From Enterobacteria phage vB_EcoS_IME18: a stretch of 50,354 bases of DNA. Made by a program: the position numbers and the translations under genes. Position 1 is the stretch's first letter; every line of letters begins with the position of its first letter. The DNA is taken from the sequence record MH051911, one strand, 5' to 3'. The notes beneath the pieces are model-generated. The model was not told the DNA's origin. It made no database searches and was given only the letters and a program-made list of their open reading frames with translations. Shown here one piece after another: positions 7,826 to 49,737 of this stretch.

Positions 7826-7885
7826 TTCGATTTTCTCTCTTCGTTGTCGATGAGGTAACTATATCAAATCACCCCATCGACGTTT

Positions 7886-7900
7886 TAGCAATTCGTGCTA
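7886..7900 (-). promoter_or_regulatory. palindromic box TAGCA-N5-TGCTA (promoter-associated)
   Basis: TAGCAATTCGTGCTA; on minus strand TATAGT lies exactly 22 nt downstream (7859-7864); overlaps stop codon of kinase gene. Confidence 0.6.
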
Positions 7901-8470
7901 TTTATTGATGAACGTGGCGGCTATGTGCTGAGCGGTAATTTCTGGATGACCTTCGACAGAAAAGAAGTCACATTCCTGATAACCGTTAACCCCGATCATG
8001 TAGTCAAGATAGATATAGTCGCGGCTGTCGTTATCAAAGCTGCAACCTTTGCGATGTATGCGGCATAGCTTGACCTGGATATCACCTTCAATCATTTGCA
8101 AGATCTCATCTTTGAATCCACCATCAGTAAATACCGAAAGGGAGTGCGACTCTTTCACCTTGCTTTCCGCTCGCATACCGAAAAAGCGATTGCCGAATTG
8201 CGGCTTGATGACCTCTTCACTAATCCAGATCATAAACTGGCGTGGGCTTTTACCGTTCAGGATTGATGCTGGCTCTTCTTTATATCGACGGTCCTCATAC
8301 AAGAACATGAAATACTCGTAGTTAGCTTCACCCAGGATTGCTCGGGCAATCTCAAACATTGGCGCTTTGAAGCTGCGCAAGGCTACGTGATCGTAAGTGT
8401 CAGCAAGGATGCATCCGATAGTGTCTTTTCCCGCTCCAGGTGCGCCGTTTAAAATGATAGCTGTTTTCAT
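7898..8470 (-). CDS. P-loop kinase (polynucleotide kinase-like or dNMP kinase-like)
   Basis: Walker A GAPGAGKDT at N-terminus; LNGKSP motif; adjacent to PNK-type phosphatase gene. Confidence 0.65.
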   Translation of the reverse strand: MKTAIILNGAPGAGKDTIGCILADTYDHVALRSFKAPMFEIARAILGEANYEYFMFLYEDRRYKEEPASILNGKSPRQFMIWISEEVIKPQFGNRFFGMRAESKVKESHSLSVFTDGGFKDEILQMIEGDIQVKLCRIHRKGCSFDNDSRDYIYLDYMIGVNGYQECDFFSVEGHPEITAQHIAATFINK

Positions 8471-9190: not shown

Positions 9191-9258
9191 GATTTATTCC
9201 TCTGATTGGTTGCTTAACTCAATGAAGGGCATTCTATCAAATGCCCTTGAGCAAGTTT

Positions 9259-9273
9259 TAGCAATTCGTGCTA
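9259..9273 (-). promoter_or_regulatory. palindromic box TAGCA-N5-TGCTA (promoter-associated)
   Basis: TAGCAATTCGTGCTA; TAGAAT 22 nt downstream on minus strand; hairpin AAGGGCAT/ATGCCCTT in spacer. Confidence 0.6.
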
Positions 9274-9720
9274 TTACCAGCAATCGACCTCGTAGTCAGC
9301 CCAAGCGTCAAAATCACTTTGGCAGAATGTGCCGCTATAATTTTCCATCATTTCATCGATCAGGAAGTAGCACGACTCACCGTTACGATAGAAGTATGAA
9401 TCAGCAACGTTACGCGCCCAGCGCCCAGCATCTTTCTTGCTCATCTTCCAGTATTTCATTGCAATTTTCTTGAATGCGCGAACAACGCGTTTGCGGATCT
9501 TTATATGCTTGTACACAGCGTTGCAGCCGTAGGCCATATATTCGTTATCGCCAAGATTCTGCATAATGTACGGATTTACTTCTCTTGACGTAATCATCAG
9601 ATCGCCATCGCCGCGACGCTCATCATAAATACTTGCTGTCATGTAGTGACCTCTGAACATTCCGATGCCGTGAAGAGTGTATTCATCGTTAGGCGTTTCA
9701 ATGCAAATTAAGTGTTTCAT
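9274..9720 (-). CDS. hypothetical protein
   Basis: Start reassigned to ATG 9718-9720 with SD GAGGAAG; 148 aa. Confidence 0.5.
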   Translation of the reverse strand: MKHLICIETPNDEYTLHGIGMFRGHYMTASIYDERRGDGDLMITSREVNPYIMQNLGDNEYMAYGCNAVYKHIKIRKRVVRAFKKIAMKYWKMSKKDAGRWARNVADSYFYRNGESCYFLIDEMMENYSGTFCQSDFDAWADYEVDCW

Positions 9721-9777
9721 TAGTGCTTCCTCGTTTGTTGGTGTAGGGGAATCATAGCGCATTCCCCTTGATAGGTT

Positions 9778-9996
9778 TTAGCAATTCGTGCTATTCGTTT
9801 TAATAGTAATGCAAAAATAATTTTTTAAGCACGTCACCACGCGCGCTGAATCGACTTGTGGGAGCCTTAAAACCTCGCTGACCAATTGCACTGCCGACAC
9901 CTCAGATTTGTAGTAGTGGGCGATTCTGGAGCTATTTGGGCGCATTCCTTCCACTGCGTCGCGTGCTGCATCTTCTGCTGTCATGATAGTAGCCAT
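9778..9996 (-). CDS. questionable ORF, hypothetical
   Basis: 72-aa ORF whose 3' end reads through the palindromic box; weak SD; may be non-coding. Confidence 0.25.
   Translation of the reverse strand: MATIMTAEDAARDAVEGMRPNSSRIAHYYKSEVSAVQLVSEVLRLPQVDSARVVTCLKNYFCITIKTNSTNC
9779..9793 (-). promoter_or_regulatory. palindromic box TAGCA-N5-TGCTA (promoter-associated)
   Basis: TAGCAATTCGTGCTA; TATGAT 22 nt downstream on minus strand. Confidence 0.55.
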
Positions 9997-12553: not shown

Positions 12554-12612
12554 GCTATCGTCCTCGTTCGTTGTCGATGGGGTTACTATATCGCAACCCC
12601 TGAGTTGAGTTT

Positions 12613-12627
12613 TAACAAAAAGTGCTA
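12613..12627 (-). promoter_or_regulatory. palindromic box (promoter-associated)
   Basis: TAACAAAAAGTGCTA; TATAGT 22 nt downstream on minus strand. Confidence 0.6.
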
Positions 12628-12816
12628 TTCTTTAATTTCGAAGCAATCGGTGTCTTCGTCGAATATCCAGGGGTCGCCGTTATCATCAAGTAATGAGATA
12701 TTCCCGAAGCTGGTTAGCGATGCACTATAAGGCTTGTCAACGGTAAAGCACTCTTTAACTTCCTCGTAATCACTGCCTTTGAATACTGCAATCATTTGGT
12801 GCATAAAATCAGCCAT
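12625..12816 (-). CDS. hypothetical protein
   Basis: 63-aa ORF. Confidence 0.4.
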   Translation of the reverse strand: MADFMHQMIAVFKGSDYEEVKECFTVDKPYSASLTSFGNISLLDDNGDPWIFDEDTDCFEIKE

Positions 12817-16512: not shown

Positions 16513-16582
16513 GCGGCAAGTCCGCCAAAACAAAACTGATACGATCCCTGTCGCCGCGTGGATTTTTCAAAGCGATCGCAAA

Positions 16583-16597
16583 TAGCACTTTTTGTTA
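16583..16597 (+). promoter_or_regulatory. palindromic box (promoter-associated)
   Basis: TAGCACTTTTTGTTA; CATAAT 22 nt downstream. Confidence 0.6.
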
Positions 16598-16658
16598 AAA
16601 CTCGATCTGTGCGATTTGGCATAATTACCTCATCGAAACGAGATTGAGGAAAAACAAA

Positions 16659-21233: not shown

Positions 21234-21345
21234 GCAAGGGTTGTTGAGTCTGTTACTCACTTCAATGAGGGCCAACAACGACAGTGAGCACAATCTTTGC
21301 GATCAGGAAGGAGAGTTACTCCTTCACGTAAAAAGGTACAAATAG
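21145..21345 (+). CDS. hypothetical protein (overlapping, +1 frame relative to 20826..21233)
   Basis: ATG 21145 with SD GGAGAG spacer 7; stop TAG lies in box. Confidence 0.35.
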   Translation: MKICLANVETLIDRNVELCARLQLTKEEFEQGLLSLLLTSMRANNDSEHNLCDQEGELLLHVKRYK

Positions 21346-21357
21346 CACTTTTTGTTA
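21343..21357 (+). promoter_or_regulatory. palindromic box (promoter-associated)
   Basis: TAGCACTTTTTGTTA; TATATT 22 nt downstream. Confidence 0.6.
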
Positions 21358-21432
21358 AAACACCAGATCTCGTATCGGGTATATTTGTTTCATCGAAACG
21401 AAGCGACCCGAAGGAAAGCATTATGGCTAACA

Positions 21433-22755: not shown

Positions 22756-22873
22756 AATCTCACCATATATTTTTTGAACAAGTGAGTCGATTTTAACCTT
22801 CAAATTTACTTGATACAACGCAAAAAGGCCAGCATGTAAATCATGCCAGCCTGTAAGGTGATGAATGATATTG

Positions 22874-23050: not shown

Positions 23051-23107
23051 GATATATCCTCTTTGTTTTCGATGTGATTACTATACCCGAATCCCTTCGG
23101 GCGTTTT

Positions 23108-23122
23108 TATCAATTAGTGCGA
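23108..23122 (-). promoter_or_regulatory. degenerate palindromic box (promoter-associated)
   Basis: TATCAATTAGTGCGA; TATAGT 22 nt downstream on minus strand. Confidence 0.45.
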
Positions 23123-24265
23123 CCCTGTCATTTCTGGACGATAGATGAATCGACCGATTTCACCAAACTGCTTATCGTAAACAATTACCGCCGCCTGGCG
23201 ATATGAGCGCCACCCTCCGCGTGCTGCGTATGCATCTTTCGCGCCTAACTGACCGTGTACTTCATCAATACCTAGCGAGTGCTCAGTGATTGTCTGGTGA
23301 TGCCAGTGCCCGCTATGAGTATACACATACTTGCTCTCGCCGAAATCCGATCGGAAATCTGCTGCCATCGCTGCAAGTCGCGTGTCTGCCTTTTTCATAG
23401 TGTGCCCGTGAGTGTATCCCAACAAGGTATTTCCCCAACGAGTCTTATGCAGAATCATAGGACTGACGTCAACGAATACTCGCGGCTCGTCTTCATAGTA
23501 TGCTGCCATTGCTGCGCGTAACCAAATCATCCCGGCCTGGTCGTGGTTTCCTTCGATAACCTGAACTTCGACCTCTTTGTGTTTCGTCAGCATTTTGTCT
23601 ATAGCTCGTCGCACCGATCGAATCGCTACATGCACCAATTTAGCATATCGTGAATCCTGATCAAGAACGTGACCACTTGCCGGGGTAACTGCATCAAGTC
23701 CGTCAGAGTGAAGGAAGTCGCCGCCGATTAACAGAACAGCCTTCTCTGCGTTCGGGGCAATATCGATCGCGTAGTTAAAGAAGTCATTCAGCACTTTTTC
23801 CGCTACGTCTGTAGAGTAGTTCTCTCCGCATTCATGCTTGTGAGCAAGCGCGCCAATGTGAAGATCGAACACCGGGTATAGTGCCAGCTTGCCAATAGCG
23901 GTTGTAAGCCCTTGCGATGTGAGTAGCTCAGTTAGTTTTGCTCGCGGCAAGTCTTCACAGAATGCAATACGCGCTGCTTCCATCATTGCCGCAATCTTCT
24001 CACGGTCCTGATCGGTCTTAACCCATCGCACTACCTCGGTCCCATCTCCGCGAATCATCGTTGATGTGCCTTTTACCATGAATCCTTCCGGTACGTTCTT
24101 AGCAACATGCTCGTTGCCGTGGAAGTGTCCTTCTTTTGCCAATTTTGCGTGGCGAGCCTCAACAGTGCGAATGTGCATACCGTACTTTTCCGCGATCTCG
24201 CGAAGTGTCAGGCCTTTCATGCGTTCTTCGACAAGTTGCTCGGTAGTGATTTTAGCTTGTGACAT
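23114..24265 (-). CDS. HTH domain-containing calcineurin-like metallophosphoesterase
   Basis: N-terminal HTH-like LTLREIAEKYGMHIRTVEARH; metallophosphatase motifs DLH, GDFLHSD, GNHD, GHT, GHWH. Confidence 0.6.
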   Translation of the reverse strand: MSQAKITTEQLVEERMKGLTLREIAEKYGMHIRTVEARHAKLAKEGHFHGNEHVAKNVPEGFMVKGTSTMIRGDGTEVVRWVKTDQDREKIAAMMEAARIAFCEDLPRAKLTELLTSQGLTTAIGKLALYPVFDLHIGALAHKHECGENYSTDVAEKVLNDFFNYAIDIAPNAEKAVLLIGGDFLHSDGLDAVTPASGHVLDQDSRYAKLVHVAIRSVRRAIDKMLTKHKEVEVQVIEGNHDQAGMIWLRAAMAAYYEDEPRVFVDVSPMILHKTRWGNTLLGYTHGHTMKKADTRLAAMAADFRSDFGESKYVYTHSGHWHHQTITEHSLGIDEVHGQLGAKDAYAARGGWRSYRQAAVIVYDKQFGEIGRFIYRPEMTGSH

Positions 24266-24343
24266 ATTTTAATCCTTACATGATAATGAAATACATTACT
24301 GAAAATGAAATTAGCGGTGTTAATACTACAGCAAAATAAAGAT

Positions 24344-25110: not shown

Positions 25111-25350
25111 TACGATCGTATCGGCTTTAAGTTCCTCTACGTCTTTCTGGATAATTGAAGGCCAACGCTCGATATATTCATTTTTTATCTCATCGAAAGA
25201 CATATCAAGAGAACTAGTAAACTTCCACAGATCGCAACCAATAACATCCTGAGTCAATCCGTTTTGCTCCATAATTTCGCAGCACGTAGCGCGATAAAGA
25301 AGCCATAAACCTTGCTCAGTTAATTTAACAGGAACCATTTTTTCGCTCAT
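25102..25350 (-). CDS. hypothetical protein
   Basis: Start chosen at ATG overlapping Dam stop (ATGA); 82 aa. Confidence 0.45.
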   Translation of the reverse strand: MSEKMVPVKLTEQGLWLLYRATCCEIMEQNGLTQDVIGCDLWKFTSSLDMSFDEIKNEYIERWPSIIQKDVEELKADTIVQH

Positions 25351-26063
25351 CATACTTTCCTTACCTTTGCTCGTTTGTTTTTCACCGAAGGGCAAATGCT
25401 TGTGATTGGGATGTAGTGAGTCTGTTGCACCTCACCTTCTTTAAGTTCGCGCATAATAAAAATTACCGAACCTTTGTTATTGCCGTCTACGGCCTTTCCA
25501 GTTTCACCGGATATGAAAGCCAGGCGACCAGATCTGGCGTACTCGTTACCGTCGATATCTTCAGTCAAGTCAGCTTCAATCCAGATAATCTCAGCCGCAT
25601 TCTGTCGCGCCTCAGTAAACCACGCTGTGGAATTATCGGCAGGCAACAGAATATCAATCTGATTGTTGTGCTCCATTTGCTCGATCGCCTTCTTGACGAA
25701 TATATCAGGTCGACTATAAGGAGGATTTAACCATACGTGCTTATTCTTACCCCACCAACGTTTTAAGCAGTTTGTTTCTTGTGAGTAGAACTTATCGCAA
25801 ACTTTATTTTCTTCGCTTGCCGCAGCGTCGAGATCATATTTTCCGTAGCGCCCCTCAAGGTATGCAATAACCTCTCGCGGAGTTGACCATAAATCACGAA
25901 CAGCGTCAGGGGTATTCGTCCCCTTGTATCGACGCCCTGAAATCTCTTTGCAGGTTGGCGTTTTCAATGCCTGATAATAACCGCCTGATGCTATTGCTTC
26001 GCGAGTGAATGAGCAACCAGTTTCTGCAAAGTCGATAGTTTCGATATCATTAAAGTCTTTCAT
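25350..26063 (-). CDS. dam: DNA N6-adenine methyltransferase (phage Dam-type)
   Basis: NPPY catalytic motif (WLNPPYS); SD GAGAGGAA. Confidence 0.75.
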   Translation of the reverse strand: MKDFNDIETIDFAETGCSFTREAIASGGYYQALKTPTCKEISGRRYKGTNTPDAVRDLWSTPREVIAYLEGRYGKYDLDAAASEENKVCDKFYSQETNCLKRWWGKNKHVWLNPPYSRPDIFVKKAIEQMEHNNQIDILLPADNSTAWFTEARQNAAEIIWIEADLTEDIDGNEYARSGRLAFISGETGKAVDGNNKGSVIFIMRELKEGEVQQTHYIPITSICPSVKNKRAKVRKV

Positions 26064-26118
26064 TTTTATTCCTCTCGTTTTGGTGAGATAATAATGCCAG
26101 ATTCCATCCCGGCAGTTT

Positions 26119-26133
26119 TAACAAAAAGTGCTA
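26119..26133 (-). promoter_or_regulatory. palindromic box (promoter-associated)
   Basis: TAACAAAAAGTGCTA; CATTAT/TATTAT about 22-25 nt downstream on minus strand; upstream of dam. Confidence 0.5.
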
Positions 26134-26547
26134 TTTCATCATTTCGTAAATTGCGATCTTGAATTGCCCGAATCCGTATGCGACGGCAGAGAAGCCACCA
26201 CGCTCCCGGACCTTTCGGAGAAATTCCCTTTGCTTGTCGCTGACTGGTGACGCCTTTCCTTTGCCTGACTTATTAACCCGCTTGAGTTCTATTGCTGCAA
26301 ACGGGTATCGTGAGTTAACACCAATCAGGATAACGAAGTCTGACACTCCTTTAAGTAATCCGGCCTGCTCATCCCTGAGCGCCGATGTGATTGTTTTTTC
26401 ACCTTCATTGACAGTGTGCCAAAATAGAAGGTGAGGAAAATTGTATTTCAGCCAGGACACACAATCCACCTGATGAGCGTCCTCCTTTCGAGTGTCGCTG
26501 GGATCTCGCTCGTAAAACTCTAAATAATCACCTTTGTCTGTAATCAT
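26131..26547 (-). CDS. VRR-NUC domain nuclease
   Basis: PD-(D/E)XK-type segment GVSDFVILIG...AIELKR typical of VRR-NUC; ATGA overlap with helicase stop. Confidence 0.65.
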   Translation of the reverse strand: MITDKGDYLEFYERDPSDTRKEDAHQVDCVSWLKYNFPHLLFWHTVNEGEKTITSALRDEQAGLLKGVSDFVILIGVNSRYPFAAIELKRVNKSGKGKASPVSDKQREFLRKVRERGGFSAVAYGFGQFKIAIYEMMK

Positions 26548-28562
26548 TCCGGGATATCCTCCATACCGAAGTCTTTACGTGAAATAATATCTTCTTTCTT
26601 CTGGTTGCGACGATGAGTTACGCGCACCGGGTGAGCAATATGATGTGAGTATTGCAAAATCTTGATGGCGTTCTTCATTCCGATAAAGTAGCGACGCATT
26701 TTAGGATCTGACACATGAGGTAATACACCTTTCGTTTTCCATAGCGTACCGCAAATCTTAGAGTCTGACTCAGGGAAGAATTTTTCATACGCCTTGAACT
26801 CATCACCTTCATCATTAATCAGCGTGTATTTGTATATCACGCCCTTTTGGTTTTTGGTTAGCGTAACCTCAAAATTCTTGACCTCGTACCAGTCATTCTT
26901 GGTGTACGCTTTGCCGGACAACTTCAGGTTCGGATCGACAAGTGAAACATCACAGCAACGACAGACTCGCGCAACAACATCATTCTCTGCACCACACCCT
27001 TTAACAAGGATTTTTCCTGTACGCTCATCAACCTGGTCCTCGCAAATCTGAGAAGTCCAGAAGTGATCGCAGCGCTCGCCGTCGATAACGTTAACGCATC
27101 TGCGAGCATAGAAGCTATTTACGCAACCGCATTTCGGACATGTTTTCGGATCTTTGCCGTTTTCGAAACGCTTTTGGAATTGTGCCTGCTCAAGTATCGG
27201 ATCGAAATAAAGCTGACCCAACTCATCCATCGTACCTGCGAAATCCCATACCAGATGGTCCTGCTTAACCATTCCCTCAGCAACCTGCCAGGATTTAAGC
27301 AGACGCATACCCCTACCCAAAAGTTGAATCAACAGTGTGAGCGACCCTATCTTGCGGAGTATGACACTGAAATCCCAATTTGGAACGTTAACGCCAGTAG
27401 TGAGCGCCATTACCTGAAAGGTGTATTTAATTTTTCCGGCCCTTACATCGTCCAGAATCTTTTTGCGCGCTTTGTTGTCTGTGTCGCCAGTAATAATTGC
27501 ATAGGTGCTTCCCGGAGGAAGTGCTGCCGCTGCCTCTTTGCAGTGGCGCACACCAGCACATGTAATCAGAACCGCGTTACGCTCTTCGGCCTTTTTGGCG
27601 ACCATTTGCATGATTCGCTGAGTCAGAGATTTATCATGAAGGATCTCATCTTCCATAGCCTTCATATCTTTCTCTGTAAAGTCCTGCACTCCGTCCTCGC
27701 TCGACGCCTTGAACTTATCCAGATCGTAATGAACTCCGTCTGTTGATCCGAATATAGTCGGAACGACAGAGCCGAACTCAATCAGATAGTTTGTGTCGAT
27801 ATCGGTTACTCGCTCACGCCAGAATCCCAGCGCTTTAGGATTCTCTACCAGAATAGGAACTACGCCACGAAATTCAGATCCCGTCATACCAAATATTCTG
27901 AGATCGTGACCGTGAACCTTTTTACAGCGCCGCATCATTTCCACGATTACGATCGTGTACTGACTACGCTTAGTTCCAAGCAAAGGTTTTCCATCATTAC
28001 CAATCAGGGGAATATCTCCGTCCATGATAATTTTCCCTTTCTCGCCCCTCATCTGTTCCATTGTTTCCTTGCCCTCGATGGCTTGCGCAAGGTCTTCCCA
28101 ATCCACCTGATGACATTCATCGATCCCGATTACGTGCGGGACAAAATCAGCCAACTCATTGTTTAAGCCATTTGCAACAGTACCCTCTGAGCCTACCACG
28201 ATAGGAAAATAGCAGGACTTAATACCTAATGAGGCTGAGAAGATGGAGTTAGTTACCCCGAAGTTGTCAATCTCCTCGCTATCCTGATCGACAATCTCAC
28301 CCTGACGAGCCAGAACGAGCATTTTTAATCCCATTTTCTGACACTGCTTTGCAACCATAGCAAAAATGATGGTTTTACCCGCAGATACTGACGCTTTAAC
28401 AAAGAATGGATGCTCGTAATTTGACAGGCGTTTCGCGATCTCAGCATAAGCAACAACCTGGTACGGATAAGGAACAACCTCACCGACAGTGAATCGCTCC
28501 TGAGTTCGCTTTATGTAGTCCTCGCCAAGTAATGCAATCTGTTTTTTAATGTTCATTGTCAC
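26544..28562 (-). CDS. SF2 ATP-dependent DNA helicase (DEAH-type) with C-terminal Cys-rich region
   Basis: Walker A SAGKT, DECH box (IGIDECHQV), C-terminal CxxC clusters; 672 aa. Confidence 0.75.
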   Translation of the reverse strand: MTMNIKKQIALLGEDYIKRTQERFTVGEVVPYPYQVVAYAEIAKRLSNYEHPFFVKASVSAGKTIIFAMVAKQCQKMGLKMLVLARQGEIVDQDSEEIDNFGVTNSIFSASLGIKSCYFPIVVGSEGTVANGLNNELADFVPHVIGIDECHQVDWEDLAQAIEGKETMEQMRGEKGKIIMDGDIPLIGNDGKPLLGTKRSQYTIVIVEMMRRCKKVHGHDLRIFGMTGSEFRGVVPILVENPKALGFWRERVTDIDTNYLIEFGSVVPTIFGSTDGVHYDLDKFKASSEDGVQDFTEKDMKAMEDEILHDKSLTQRIMQMVAKKAEERNAVLITCAGVRHCKEAAAALPPGSTYAIITGDTDNKARKKILDDVRAGKIKYTFQVMALTTGVNVPNWDFSVILRKIGSLTLLIQLLGRGMRLLKSWQVAEGMVKQDHLVWDFAGTMDELGQLYFDPILEQAQFQKRFENGKDPKTCPKCGCVNSFYARRCVNVIDGERCDHFWTSQICEDQVDERTGKILVKGCGAENDVVARVCRCCDVSLVDPNLKLSGKAYTKNDWYEVKNFEVTLTKNQKGVIYKYTLINDEGDEFKAYEKFFPESDSKICGTLWKTKGVLPHVSDPKMRRYFIGMKNAIKILQYSHHIAHPVRVTHRRNQKKEDIISRKDFGMEDIPE

Positions 28563-28604: not shown

Positions 28605-28627
28605 ACACGGCATACAGTAAACGTTTT

Positions 28628-28642
28628 TAGCAAAAAGTGCTA
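28628..28642 (-). promoter_or_regulatory. palindromic box (promoter-associated, divergent)
   Basis: TAGCAAAAAGTGCTA; on minus strand TATTAT 22 nt downstream, upstream of helicase; also sits about 10 bp from RBS of plus gene 28656. Confidence 0.55.
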
Positions 28643-28655
28643 TAGGAGAATTAAG

Positions 28656-29108
28656 ATGAGTATTCAACGCATCGCGGAGTCAACTGGTGAAATCGATAAA
28701 CGTCACATCAATGGTAACAACGGAACTCGACGCGGTAAAGACAAAAAGCCACGACAGCGCTGCGGGTTCTATATTCATAAGGAAGAAACACGCGCCGGAT
28801 TGCGAGCACGACTTGATGCGCTTATCGAATATTATGGTGGCCCTGCGGCATGCGCAAAGGCACTAAAAGTAACAAATCAGACGGTGCAAGGCTGGAAAGA
28901 ACGCAACATGATTTCGTGGCAAGGCGCTGAGGCTGCACATCGCGCTTACCGCCGACAGGGGTGTAAAGGATACCGCGCATCATGGCTGAGATTCGACCTC
29001 AAGTTTGATGGTAACGGCAAGTGCCTTGAGAAGCGATGCAAGAACAAGAAATTCATGCGGGTTGTGAAGAAGGAAGATATCGGAACGACCAATAGCATTT
29101 TTAGTTAA
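28656..29108 (+). CDS. putative HTH DNA-binding regulator (Cro/YdaS-like)
   Basis: Segment GGPAACAKALKVTNQTVQGWKERNMISWQGAEAAH resembles Cro-type HTH; SD AGGAG. Confidence 0.5.
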   Translation: MSIQRIAESTGEIDKRHINGNNGTRRGKDKKPRQRCGFYIHKEETRAGLRARLDALIEYYGGPAACAKALKVTNQTVQGWKERNMISWQGAEAAHRAYRRQGCKGYRASWLRFDLKFDGNGKCLEKRCKNKKFMRVVKKEDIGTTNSIFS

Positions 29109-42012: not shown

Positions 42013-42366
42013 CTATTCCATAGATGTAAACTGCTCCATAAACGTGACATTAATTTCCATCACGTCGCGTGATACTGGCTTCGCACCCAGGCTGTTAGGC
42101 TTAACAACCCATATTCCGATCTTCCCGTCCGGCGGCGTCCATGCGAAAGGTTTAATGCGGTGAGAATCACAGAAGTCGTAAACAGCCATGAAATCTTCCC
42201 CAGCATAGACAACTGAATACTCGCGTCGCGTGGTGTTAAATCCAGAAGATGCAAGCTGCATGTAGCCGTTTCCAAACTGTATGGATCTGTCATTGTTGGT
42301 AGTTGTAAGGGAGCCGCCGCCCCCTTGAACCTGCGTACACCAACTGAAAGTGTCAAGTGTCGCCAT
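42013..42366 (-). CDS. minor tail protein (lambda gpM-like)
   Basis: 117 aa; immediately downstream of tape measure gene. Confidence 0.65.
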   Translation of the reverse strand: MATLDTFSWCTQVQGGGGSLTTTNNDRSIQFGNGYMQLASSGFNTTRREYSVVYAGEDFMAVYDFCDSHRIKPFAWTPPDGKIGIWVVKPNSLGAKPVSRDVMEINVTFMEQFTSME

Positions 42367-42368
42367 TA

Positions 42369-45242
42369 TTAGCCTCCTGTTTTTTCCTGAATGTAATTGT
42401 AAACCTCACCGCCCTGTGAACAAGACTCTCGAATCATTTTTTTGAACATCATTTCTACGCCCTGAGAAATTCCTCTCGGATCTGAACCGTTGTCAACTTT
42501 AACCTCCATACCCCTAACATCAACGACCGTCCCGCCTGCTGATTGGTTCACTGCCTTCGGTGCGGATTTAGATGCGTTAAATCCAGATGTTGCAACACTA
42601 CCCGCAGCGGCAGCAAGCGAGGTAACAGCGACGCCTGAAGATAAAGACCTAAAACCAGAGACGGCAGGCGTAGGAGTTGCCTGTGATACCGCAGAAGCAC
42701 CAGGCGACACCCCTCCAGCAAAGCTCCACGTCTTACCGCCCATCATGCCTGAGATCGTATTGAAGATTACCATTTGAGCAATCATCTTGATAATCATGCT
42801 AATGATGTTTTTCGCAAAGTCCTCAAAATTTGCCTTACCTGTAGTCAGGAATTGGGTCATCATGTCACTCATTCCGTTAAGTGAACTTGACGCGATATCA
42901 TACACGTTGCCGTACATATCCATTGCAGAATCGCCGTAATCTGCAAATGCACTTTCAGCACCTGCTAACCAGTCAGAACGCTTGGCATCTTCCGCAGCAT
43001 AGTAATCATTTTGTGCCTTGATCATGTTCTGGAGTTTTTCATCTCCTTCGCTGCCACCTGCATTAATATAATCAGTAGTGATCTTAGCCAACTCAGCTTG
43101 CCTTTCCATTTCTCGGGTGCTCATCCCTCGAGACGCGTTTAGCTGTTCTGTAGCTGCCGTCAAATCATTGACAAATTTCAGTGATTTATCGGTAAGAGCG
43201 TTCAACTGCTGCTGCTTAACAATCTGATCGCCAATCTCAGCCTTTTGTTTCGCAAGCTCTAAAACCTTCTCTTGGTTTGCAAGTAGTGCTTTTTCTTCCG
43301 CAGATAGCTGACGCTTAGAACTAGCTTCTCGAAGAACAGCAATTGTAGCCTCAGTCGTAAACAGCGCCTTTCTCTGTGCTGATATTTTTTGCCCGATCTC
43401 CTTGTGCTCCTGCAAAACCTTAAGCTGCGCTTTGAGTGAAATTAACTCCTTATCGAATTGCTCTGTAGGTGAGCGTAAAATTTTCGACTGCTTATTTCGT
43501 TCACGGTTTCGCTTTTCGATCTCTTCCGCTTCTTCCTTGATAGCGTCCTTAGTTTCCTGGCTATACTGCTTTTCAAGAGTACGGCGCTGCTTCATTGCTT
43601 CAATGTATCCCATCTCACCTTTTTCAACACGGGCGTTAATGGCATCAAGCTCTGAAGCTAACTGATCGTAGTTGTCACGAGAACTTTTTACAATATTCTC
43701 CTGTTCCTTTAGTACATCAGCACCAAAATCACTCATGCCAGGCAGGGACTGTGTAGCCTTAATTGCAGATGCGATAAAGTTTGAGATGTACTCATCACCC
43801 TTAGCAAGAATCATTTTCACCTGAATTACTGTACCTTGAACTACGTCAATAATCAGGTTTAACGCTCCGAGCGTATGATCCCCAACCCATCCCCACGCAT
43901 CAGAGGCCCACTGCTTAATATCGTTCCACATTTTTTCAAGAGGTGTGGCATTGTCTGCGATCGACTTCATTCGTTTTTCCATTACATCGGCGAATAATTT
44001 CGTGGCTTCAGACACTGCCTCCGTTTCACCCTTAGTACGGCTTAGAGTATCGATGTATGTCAGCTGTCCTTTTTCTAAAAAATTGTATTGCTCGTTAAGT
44101 TTAGCTAAACCCTTTACAGGATCGCTTGCGATTTTATCGAACTCAGCGATGATTTTACTTGCTGATTTTCCGGTTGCTGTCGACCACTCAGCGGTAGCTT
44201 TTGTGATGTTCTGAATCTGCTCTCGAGTATACTTCCCCGTACTGGCAAGTTCAGTAACAATATCACGAATACTTCCAACGGTTGAGTTACTTGTCTGCGC
44301 AACCTTTTTAGCAACCAAATCAAGATCATCAGCCGTAACTCCAGCATAACCTCCAGTCTCAATAAGTGCATTCTGCATATCAGTTATTGACTTGTAAGAG
44401 TCATAACCAGCTTTCGCAAGAAGACCTAAAGAACCGACAAGAACACCAACGCCAACTGTGACAGGATTAATATAGCTTAGCAATACCTTAAACGTATTCC
44501 CGATCCCGCCGAACGAGTCCTTGATTTGACCGCCTTGCTGGATGGCAACCATCCAAACTGGCATACCGGACGCAAGAGATGTAACGACGTCGGTAATCTG
44601 TGCAGGAAGCATTCGCATTGCCTGCCTATATTGCCCTGCGCTAATACCTGCGGCATTCATGGCTCTACCCTGTTCTTTCAGTTTTGCGATCAGGGGCGCT
44701 GCTTCATTTGATAGTCCAAGCTGAGCCGCTTTCAGTTCCATTAACTCTGCGTGAGTTTTGCCAATGGCGTTAACCTGACTGTTCAGGGAATCCATGAACG
44801 CTTTGTTTTTCGCTGCCGCCTGCTCTTTTGCTTTCGCCTCCTGCAATGCTGCCTGACCTTCTTCTGTAAGCATGGCCCGGCTGCGAGCAAGTTTTGCGTT
44901 TTGCATATCCAGCATTTCACCTAACCGGAAAAATGTTTCATCTGGAACGACGCCCTTTTGCCAGAGCTTGTCAAGCTGCTGAGATGCAATCTTCAGCCTT
45001 TCCATTTTTGATACTGTAGGATCGATTGCCTTTTCTACAGCCTCGTACTCTTTTCGCTGGCGCTTAAGTTGCTCAGCGTGTTCTTTAGCCTTCTGTTTTG
45101 CAACCTCAGCCTCATTGATTAAAGACCCCATAGAGTCAGCGGCTTGGTCGTTAGCTTTTGAAAACTCTTTCAATGACTTGACGGCGCGCTGCACTGTCGA
45201 CACATCAACGTCAAGCGATAGACCTGCTACCTTATCAACCAT
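42369..45242 (-). CDS. tail tape measure protein
   Basis: 957 aa, long Ala/Gln/Lys-rich coiled-coil regions, Gly/Met-rich hydrophobic segment; follows G/G-T chaperones. Confidence 0.85.
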
Positions 45243-45916: not shown

Positions 45917-45938
45917 GATATTTCTCCTGATTGGTTAA

Positions 45939-45953
45939 TAGCACTTTTTGTTA
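45939..45953 (+). promoter_or_regulatory. palindromic box adjacent to chaperone G RBS
   Basis: TAGCACTTTTTGTTA about 20 bp upstream of G start on opposite strand; TACGAT 22 nt downstream on plus. Confidence 0.4.
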
Positions 45954-45989
45954 AAAGCAAAGAGTGCAAAGTTGATACGATGATTTTAC

Positions 45990-49695: not shown

Positions 49696-49701
49696 CAATA
49701 A

Positions 49702-49716
49702 TAGCACTTTTTGTTA
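49702..49716 (+). promoter_or_regulatory. palindromic box between decoration-like and capsid genes
   Basis: TAGCACTTTTTGTTA; plus orientation inside minus-strand operon; TATGCA-like hexamer 22 nt downstream. Confidence 0.4.
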
Positions 49717-49737
49717 AAGCGTCAAAGTGTTTTTATG

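Follow-up and report, generated by a model that had tools for sequence, protein, structure and literature searches.

A helix-turn-helix metallophosphoesterase of a T1-like phage as a candidate Rad50-independent DNA nuclease

The closest described relatives of the protein considered here are gp16 (ST16) of bacteriophage T1 (YP_003929; NC_005833 40822..41955), labelled 'DNA repair exonuclease' in RefSeq, and the other members of PHROG 704, homologues of which are also annotated 'phosphoesterase' or 'metallophosphoesterase' in Drexlerviridae, Dhillonvirus, Kagunavirus, Jersey-like, Vibrio, Rhizobium and Rhodobacter phages. As documented in the KanT1 genome paper, 508 of 522 Drexlerviridae carry an exonuclease-holin-endolysin-spanin module (PMC13164509). 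A functionally better described phage protein is A1 of phage T5, a putative metallophosphatase for which Mre11/DP1-like structural features and a resemblance to nucleases of double-strand-break repair and proofreading have been described. A1 is both required and sufficient for the degradation of host DNA, also dampens pre-early transcription and is mostly associated with Demerecviridae (bioRxiv 10.64898/2026.04.02.716235). Here we describe the T1 gp16 orthologue of Enterobacteria phage vB_EcoS_IME18 (sequence record MH051911). The 50,354 nucleotides analysed, referred to below as the window, are a T1-like phage genome (Drexlerviridae, Tunavirus). The gene encodes a helix-turn-helix (HTH) domain fused to a metallophosphoesterase (MPE), designated HTH-MPE, that is predicted, with a probability we place at about one in two, to be a stand-alone, Rad50-independent DNA phosphodiesterase (nuclease) of the DNA-metabolism module.

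Based on the open reading frame (ORF) list and the sequence, HTH-MPE is encoded by a 383-amino acid (aa) ORF with an ATG start on the minus strand, and inspection of the upstream letters indicates a good ribosome-binding site. At the DNA level, gp59 of Escherichia phage FCWL1 (PP558327) shares 96.4% identity with the gene, and the counterparts in many Shigella and Escherichia Tunavirus genomes share 92-94%; the protein has 97-99% aa identity to deposited phage proteins. Because the 42 nucleotide (nt) differences from the FCWL1 orthologue result in 38 synonymous and only 4 non-synonymous codon changes, the ORF is, on this codon evidence, a real expressed gene under strong purifying selection and not a chance ORF. 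The PHROG 704 hidden Markov model matches the protein with an E-value of 5.2e-156, with residues 4-380 aligned to profile positions 2-389 of 390. T1 gp16 and the other PHROG 704 members have the same length, the same HTH and MPE layout and the same position after Dam and before the lysis genes; T1 differs from the window in having an HNH gene inserted between ST16 and the SH3 gene, and otherwise nothing of substance differs. HTH-MPE is, therefore, already known as a catalogued core gene of T1-like phages, and there is nothing novel in the window copy. The label 'DNA repair exonuclease' given to PHROG 704 and T1 gp16 is homology-based and describes a predicted activity. The gene, its translation initiation region and the predicted domains and motifs of the product are positioned as follows.

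23114..24265, minus strand: HTH-metallophosphoesterase coding sequence (CDS), orthologue of T1 gp16/ST16, stop codon included
24273..24277, minus strand: Shine-Dalgarno-like AAGGA, 8 nt 5' of the ATG; the upstream letters are GTAAGGATTAAAAT, then ATG
24134..24244, minus strand: predicted three-helix HTH DNA-binding domain, aa 8-44 (helices 8-16, 21-27 and 32-44)
23957..24082, minus strand: family-specific linker, aa 62-103, a beta-hairpin with VKGTST...WVKT and then a long helix
23141..23899, minus strand: calcineurin-like metallophosphoesterase domain, aa 123-375
23858..23866, minus strand: motif I, D134-L-H136, then G138; metal ligands, invariant in 69 sequences
23702..23722, minus strand: motif II, G182-D183-F-L-H186-S-D (aa 182-188), with the bridging Asp and the Mre11-style GDxxH histidine
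23669..23680, minus strand: family-specific loop A-S-G-H199, then LDxDxR, inserted after motif II
23540..23551, minus strand: motif III, G239-N240-H241-D242; G, N and H invariant, aligned with the GNHD of SbcD
23408..23410, minus strand: motif IV histidine H286 (in YTH), invariant
23300..23311, minus strand: motif V, G319-H320-W-H322 (aa 319-322); G319, H320 and H322 invariant

Conservation was assessed in an alignment of 69 homologues that includes a T1-like clade, with 66-89% identity, and a Vibrio/marine clade with 25-34% identity. Fourteen residues, D134, H136, G138, G182, D183, H186, H199, G239, N240, H241, H286, G319, H320 and H322, are invariant in this alignment, and these include the seven canonical metal ligands (D134, H136, D183, N240, H286, H320 and H322) and the catalytic H241. 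All five motifs of the calcineurin-like superfamily (DxH, GD, GNH(D/E), H and GHxH) are present, as is the double beta-sheet sandwich fold. AlphaFold2, applied to the family alignment, returned a model (predicted local distance difference test [pLDDT] 84.3, predicted template-modelling score 0.71) in which three N-terminal helices lead into a beta-hairpin at residues 62-86 and a long helix at 88-103, with the beta-sandwich core occupying 123-375. As modelled, the N-terminal domain is a predicted DNA-binding HTH, a three-helix bundle with HTH geometry, and Pfam matches across the family also support an HTH, of the LuxR/GerE, sigma-70 region 4 and resolvase type. There are also features that belong to the family itself. 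In the linker hairpin W81 is invariant and S68 and K83 are at least 90% conserved, and in the ASGH-LDxDxR loop, around the invariant H199, residues S197, G198, D202, D204 and R206 are at least 90% conserved. This loop is modelled at low confidence (pLDDT ~55-62 at 191-210 and <50 at 202-204). Further family motifs, GGWRS and YGExGR, are located near the C-terminus. Members of the Vibrio/marine clade have, in addition, a conserved C-terminal tail (...EEVKD...PGT..A..RRxVYTV-COOH) that is not present in the T1-like members, including the window protein, and that may be a partner-binding peptide.

The earlier note, made from the sequence alone, had proposed an HTH fused to a calcineurin-like metallophosphoesterase at 23114-24265, without naming the strand. 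The model, the HTH matches across the family and the invariant metal ligands all uphold this proposal: the N-terminal region does form an HTH and every metal-binding residue is in place on accurate alignment. The call is right, yet lay beyond confirmation by a simple Pfam scan because, in the single sequence, both domains score below threshold. Metallophos (PF00149) is matched with an E-value of 0.018, and 16.0 bits is below the gathering cut-off of 21.5, and the HTH_23 and Sigma70_r4_2 matches (E ~0.013) are likewise below threshold. No match to PF00149 or PF12850 reaches the gathering threshold, and a PF00149-type match with an E-value of 0.01 or lower is obtained for only 3-4 of the 69 relatives. 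The family is too divergent for the Pfam metallophosphoesterase model, and its predicted superfamily membership is based on motifs and fold. Four of the listed motifs, DLH (134-136), GDFLHSD (182-188), GNHD (239-242) and GHWH (319-322), are retained, but 'GHT' (287-289) is not motif IV; H288 is outside the invariant and nearly invariant columns, and the conserved motif IV histidine is H286.

Domain and structure prediction, suggested earlier as a means to distinguish an Mre11/SbcD-like nuclease from a protein phosphatase, favour the Mre11/SbcD-like branch. A Foldseek search with the model ranked Mre11 first (E 8.5e-9), and SbcD, DP1 and Mre11 provide the best structural and profile matches. 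With hhalign, the family profile aligned with Escherichia coli SbcD across motifs II and III (E 2.9e-4), with G182, D183 and H186 of motif II, all invariant, matched to motif II of SbcD, whereas no alignment was obtained with the phosphatase NinI of phage lambda (E 0.37, probability 0.16%). The motif set of HTH-MPE is DLHIG, GDFLH and GNHD. DxHxG, GDxxH and GNHD constitute the Mre11 pattern, whereas the PPP signatures are GDxHG, GDxVDRG and GNHE. Nuclease-type motifs of the Mre11/SbcD kind and the closest structural likeness, therefore, occur together in HTH-MPE, and PPP-type signatures with profile or fold similarity to NinI were not found. Sequence searches of the PDB gave nothing significant, with no real match to the single sequence and only weak matches to the family profile (GerE/LuxR, E 0.04-1; Mre11/SbcD, E 0.6-1.1), and NCBIfam and PADLOC scans gave no usable match.

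The similarities to these enzymes have clear limits. Mre11/SbcD proteins, including T4 gp47 and T5 D13, have a capping domain and a Rad50/SbcC partner, whereas HTH-MPE has instead the N-terminal HTH and hairpin-helix linker; sequence likeness between the two is marginal, and the ASGH-LDxDxR, GGWRS and YGExGR motifs are present only in the HTH-MPE family. DP1, the small subunit of archaeal PolD and a 3'-5' proofreading exonuclease, is a DNA polymerase subunit with an OB fold, whereas HTH-MPE has an HTH and no DNA polymerase is encoded in the window. The large non-structural proteins that are encoded in the window are a DUF3987 protein, an SF2 helicase, a primase, a PDDEXK exonuclease and ERF.

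If HTH-MPE is a stand-alone nuclease, the HTH would tether the enzyme to duplex DNA, in place of the Rad50/SbcC clamp and the capping domain, and the two-metal centre, with Mn2+ or Mg2+, would then hydrolyse DNA phosphodiester bonds at ends, nicks or hairpins. Two roles, which are not mutually exclusive, can be envisaged. HTH-MPE could process DNA ends for RecE-like/Erf recombination-dependent replication, generating the concatemers used in headful packaging, and RecE-like and Erf genes are both present in the window. Alternatively, or in addition, it could participate in breaking down the host chromosome to deoxynucleoside monophosphates (dNMPs) for salvage. This second role would match those of T5 A1 and T4 gp46/47 and fits with the presence of dNMP kinase and polynucleotide kinase genes directly after HTH-MPE in Webervirus and other Drexlerviridae. 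Several observations weigh against a nuclease of this kind. A literature search gave no functional study of any HTH-MPE family member, and the hhalign match to SbcD has a probability of just 41%. There is no Mre11/SbcD capping domain, as the protein stops 8 residues past the second of its two final core strands (358-364 and 368-375; total length 383 residues) and only 190 of the 319 SbcD residues align, and there is no Rad50/SbcC ORF in the window and none beside the relatives examined. One metagenomic relative is located among tail genes, and in Dhillonvirus the gene is located between the lysis and terminase genes. No sequence homology to T5 A1 was detected, as hhalign (E 0.094, probability 0.6%) and BLASTP (E 0.2) both returned only the xNHD...W stretch. 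Because the capping domain is absent and Rad50/SbcC is not encoded nearby, HTH-MPE is not a canonical Mre11/SbcD protein.

Homology to T5 A1 having been tested and not detected, T5 A1 is the best functional precedent for HTH-MPE by analogy only. A1 is a protein of 556 aa with a different architecture and pre-early expression, and what it shares with HTH-MPE is a Rad50-independent metallophosphatase fold. By extension of this analogy, HTH-MPE could be responsible in T1 for degradation of the host chromosome and could contribute to the shut-off of early transcription, as a Rad50-independent, HTH-anchored Mre11-like nuclease functionally equivalent to T5 A1 that might be targeted by sequence recognition through the HTH. 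We regard this more specific proposal as doubtful. In that case, HTH-MPE could correspond to 'gene 2.5' of the older T1 genetics, a function in host-DNA degradation.

HTH-MPE is the last sizeable gene of a helicase/VRR-NUC/Dam operon for DNA metabolism. In the window, an SF2 helicase (26544..28562), VRR-NUC (26131..26547), Dam (25350..26063), three small ORFs and then HTH-MPE are encoded in succession on the minus strand, followed, 3' of HTH-MPE, by an SH3 gene, a terminator-like hairpin and then the holin, endolysin and spanin genes. The features between HTH-MPE and the holin gene are listed below.

23086..23101, no strand assigned: GC-rich hairpin CCCGAAGGGATTCGGG (minus-strand letters), just past the HTH-MPE stop codon
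22874-23050, minus strand: stand-alone SH3-like ORF of 58 aa (Pfam DUF7244, E 4.6e-28), between the HTH-MPE and holin genes
22826-22852, minus strand: strong terminator-like hairpin with an 11-bp stem, then TTTTGCGTTG, between the SH3 ORF and the holin gene

Recent work lists the stand-alone SH3 protein among the shell components of the Drexlerviridae lysis module (PMC13164509). As the strong terminator-like hairpin precedes the holin gene, the lysis cassette appears to be a transcription unit separate from the HTH-MPE and SH3 genes. In T1, a terminator is annotated at the same place as the first hairpin, after ST16, and an HNH gene also follows ST16. In Webervirus TAH8, a polynucleotide kinase gene and then a dNMP kinase gene are located directly after HTH-MPE, and these two kinase genes are the most common direct followers of the exonuclease gene (PMC13164509). 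HTH-MPE does, as stated earlier, lie just upstream of the lysis cassette, but the SH3 gene and hairpin intervene, as do HNH or kinase genes in relatives. Further afield, metagenomic phages have HTH-MPE beside genes for the DNA polymerase III beta clamp, ThyX and ribonucleotide reductase, and in a Rhodobacter phage HTH-MPE closes a late operon. In a lambdoid-type Microbulbifer sp. prophage (L009, CP174300), the gene order is NinG, HTH-MPE, a dATP/dGTP-diphosphohydrolase-like gene, a Q-like ORF and holin, with YqaJ and ERF in the leftward early operon, and HTH-MPE is a nin-region gene in this prophage, with a separate late regulator. The Q-like ORF (9583-9972, plus strand; 129 aa) was not called in the source annotation and is located in a 727-bp gap between the nin-like and lysis genes, with a match to PHROG 79 ('anti-termination protein Q-like', E 6e-4) and a weak one to Sigma70_r4. 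Overall, the genomic context is one of DNA replication, recombination and nucleotide metabolism, and the adjacency to lysis genes is positional only.

Two additional observations were made at these loci. A free-standing HNH gene is located directly 3' of HTH-MPE in four unrelated genomes, namely T1 (42028-42510), a Jersey-like Salmonella phage (3472-3972), a Vibrio phage locus (7064-7573) and a metagenomic phage locus (9292-9909), suggesting repeated insertion of a homing endonuclease beside the conserved HTH-MPE gene. The strand annotation of the FCWL1 record looks unreliable, as it places every gene of this stretch on a single strand; in the window, as in the RefSeq entry for T1, the helicase, MPE and lysis genes are encoded on one strand and the primase, the Cro-like regulator and the genes past the spanin on the other.

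The HTH-MPE family is large. Homologues were detected by tblastn in 2020 of 50,697 phage records (~4%), with 1943 of these matches covering at least 80% of the query, and the carriers include Drexlerviridae, Dhillonvirus, Kagunavirus, Jersey-like, Proteus, Vibrio, Rhizobium 16-3 and Rhodobacter phages. An exhaustive HMMER search identified 4609 clusters (50% identity) with E-values of 1e-3 or lower, 951 of them at 1e-30 or lower, and the usual length is 370-420 aa. In distant members the N-termini cannot be aligned by BLAST, yet an N-terminal HTH is retained. Since the match to PHROG 704 is end to end, the HTH belongs to the family model, and the HTH and MPE fusion is the norm for the family. 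The fusion had been considered unusual, a view that does not survive its occurrence in full-length PHROG 704, in these 2020 records and in these 4609 clusters. In several Jersey-like and Kagunavirus records (for example, Salmonella SHWT1, RA114, SLMP1 and ZCEC5; Shigella vB_SsoS_008), a single tblastn match spans two or three 'hypothetical protein' CDSs, and the N- and C-terminal portions of the HTH-MPE protein (residues 1-198 and 263-379) are represented by PHROGs 20703 and 20762, respectively. In these genomes, the HTH-MPE gene may be split, frameshifted or mis-annotated.

Other activities could be assigned to the same domains. A lambda NinI-like Ser/Thr protein phosphatase fused to an HTH would have the same superfamily fold, and the position of HTH-MPE after NinG in the nin region of the lambdoid-type prophage is near the site of NinI in lambda. 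This position bears out, in part, the earlier comparison with the stand-alone phosphatases of lambdoid phages, but homology at the family level does not; NinI (ORF221) belongs to a different branch of the superfamily and has no HTH, the family profile does not align with it, the motifs of HTH-MPE are not the PPP signatures, and Rhizobium phage 16-3 encodes both an HTH-MPE family member (p044) and a NinI-like phosphatase (p047). A NinI-type phosphatase is, accordingly, rejected as highly improbable. An unlikely but better alternative is a phosphodiesterase or phosphatase that acts on small nucleotides or nucleic-acid termini rather than in DNA degradation, with cyclic (oligo)nucleotide immune signals, 2',3'-cyclic phosphate or 3'-phosphate ends (healed together with polynucleotide kinase) and Ap4A-type dinucleotides as candidate substrates. 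The polynucleotide kinase gene directly next to HTH-MPE in Webervirus, an adjacency that is frequent (PMC13164509), and the dATP/dGTP diphosphohydrolase-like gene that follows HTH-MPE in the Microbulbifer prophage are consistent with such an enzyme. The universally retained HTH is, however, hard to account for with small substrates, the GDxxH and DxHxG motifs have the Mre11 pattern, the best matches are to SbcD, DP1 and Mre11, and no PADLOC defence model was matched.

HTH-MPE could also regulate transcription, at the middle-to-late switch or in the shut-off of early genes, with the HTH positioned on phage promoters and the MPE serving as a sensor or accessory enzyme. The type of HTH (LuxR, sigma-70 region 4 or resolvase) and the location of the gene, in several unrelated phages, at the border between early or middle genes and lysis or packaging genes are consistent with this, and there is the precedent of T5 A1, a phage metallophosphatase with a dampening effect on pre-early transcription (bioRxiv 10.64898/2026.04.02.716235). 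There is also a potential target without a known binding protein, a promoter-like box (ATAGCAC-N3-TTGYTAAA) that is strongly over-represented in the window, with 32 matches at up to 3 mismatches as compared with 3.1 expected. Examples of the box are located as follows.

7884-7901, minus strand: box
9257-9274, minus strand: box
12611-12628, minus strand: box
16582-16599, plus strand: box
21342-21359, plus strand: box
26117-26134, minus strand: box
28626-28643, minus strand: box
45938-45955, plus strand: box
49701-49718, plus strand: box

The box precedes early and replication genes, in their orientation, and the copies at 45938 and 49701 are in the structural region, oriented opposite to the genes. 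A -10-like sequence (TATAGT or TATTAT) is located ~22 nt 3' of the box, usually with a GC-rich hairpin between the two, and is followed by a conserved leader, CATCGA(A/C)ACGA. From this arrangement, the box looks like part of a phage-specific promoter cassette in which it would be positioned roughly at -36 to -53. T1 has 13 exact copies of the box, and Webervirus TAH8 has 16 copies at up to 2 mismatches, versus 0.11 expected, with the same consensus. No copy directly precedes the HTH-MPE or holin gene; a degenerate copy (23106-23123) overlaps the HTH-MPE stop codon and precedes the SH3 gene, and the hairpin at 23086..23101 is part of the resulting degenerate box-hairpin-TATAGT cassette, with TATAGT further downstream. 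Regulation by HTH-MPE through these boxes is argued against by their presence before the earliest genes, which must be read by the host RNA polymerase before HTH-MPE exists, and by the box consensus remaining the same in Webervirus although the third, presumed recognition, helix (aa 32-44) differs at 5 of 13 positions between the window protein and a Webervirus-type homologue. A search for exact matches to the box in the partial loci of HTH-MPE phages outside the Drexlerviridae was also negative. HTH-MPE as the box binder is, therefore, conceivable but unsupported, and nothing was found that links it to this palindromic element. A 150-aa Cro-like HTH protein is encoded at 28656-29108 (plus strand), divergent from the helicase operon (P22_Cro, E 2.5e-5; PHROG 2856, 'transcriptional regulator', E 1.7e-76), and is another candidate binder of the box. 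The presence of this second HTH regulator, the catalytic residues that are invariant family-wide and would be needless in a pure regulator, the separate Q-like ORF between HTH-MPE and holin in the Microbulbifer prophage and the location of some relatives among tail or nucleotide-metabolism genes also argue against a regulator, which we consider quite unlikely. With the same Q-like ORF and the same relatives in mind, the possibility of a Q-equivalent late-gene regulator, raised by the position of the gene, was downgraded.

The label 'DNA repair exonuclease' conceals the HTH domain and claims more than is known, and the naming in databases could be improved. With a full catalytic centre and a predicted DNA-binding domain both retained, and persistent in the Drexlerviridae, the HTH-MPE family is worth study at the bench. 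If HTH-MPE is a nuclease, this could account for how host DNA is broken down, or how recombination-dependent replication begins, in phages that use the host polymerase, and a stand-alone, HTH-tethered Mre11-like nuclease would show how phages do without Rad50. Should it be the host-degrading nuclease, it would constitute a second, and far more widespread, family of phage nucleases for the demolition of host genomes, present in >2000 sequenced phages.

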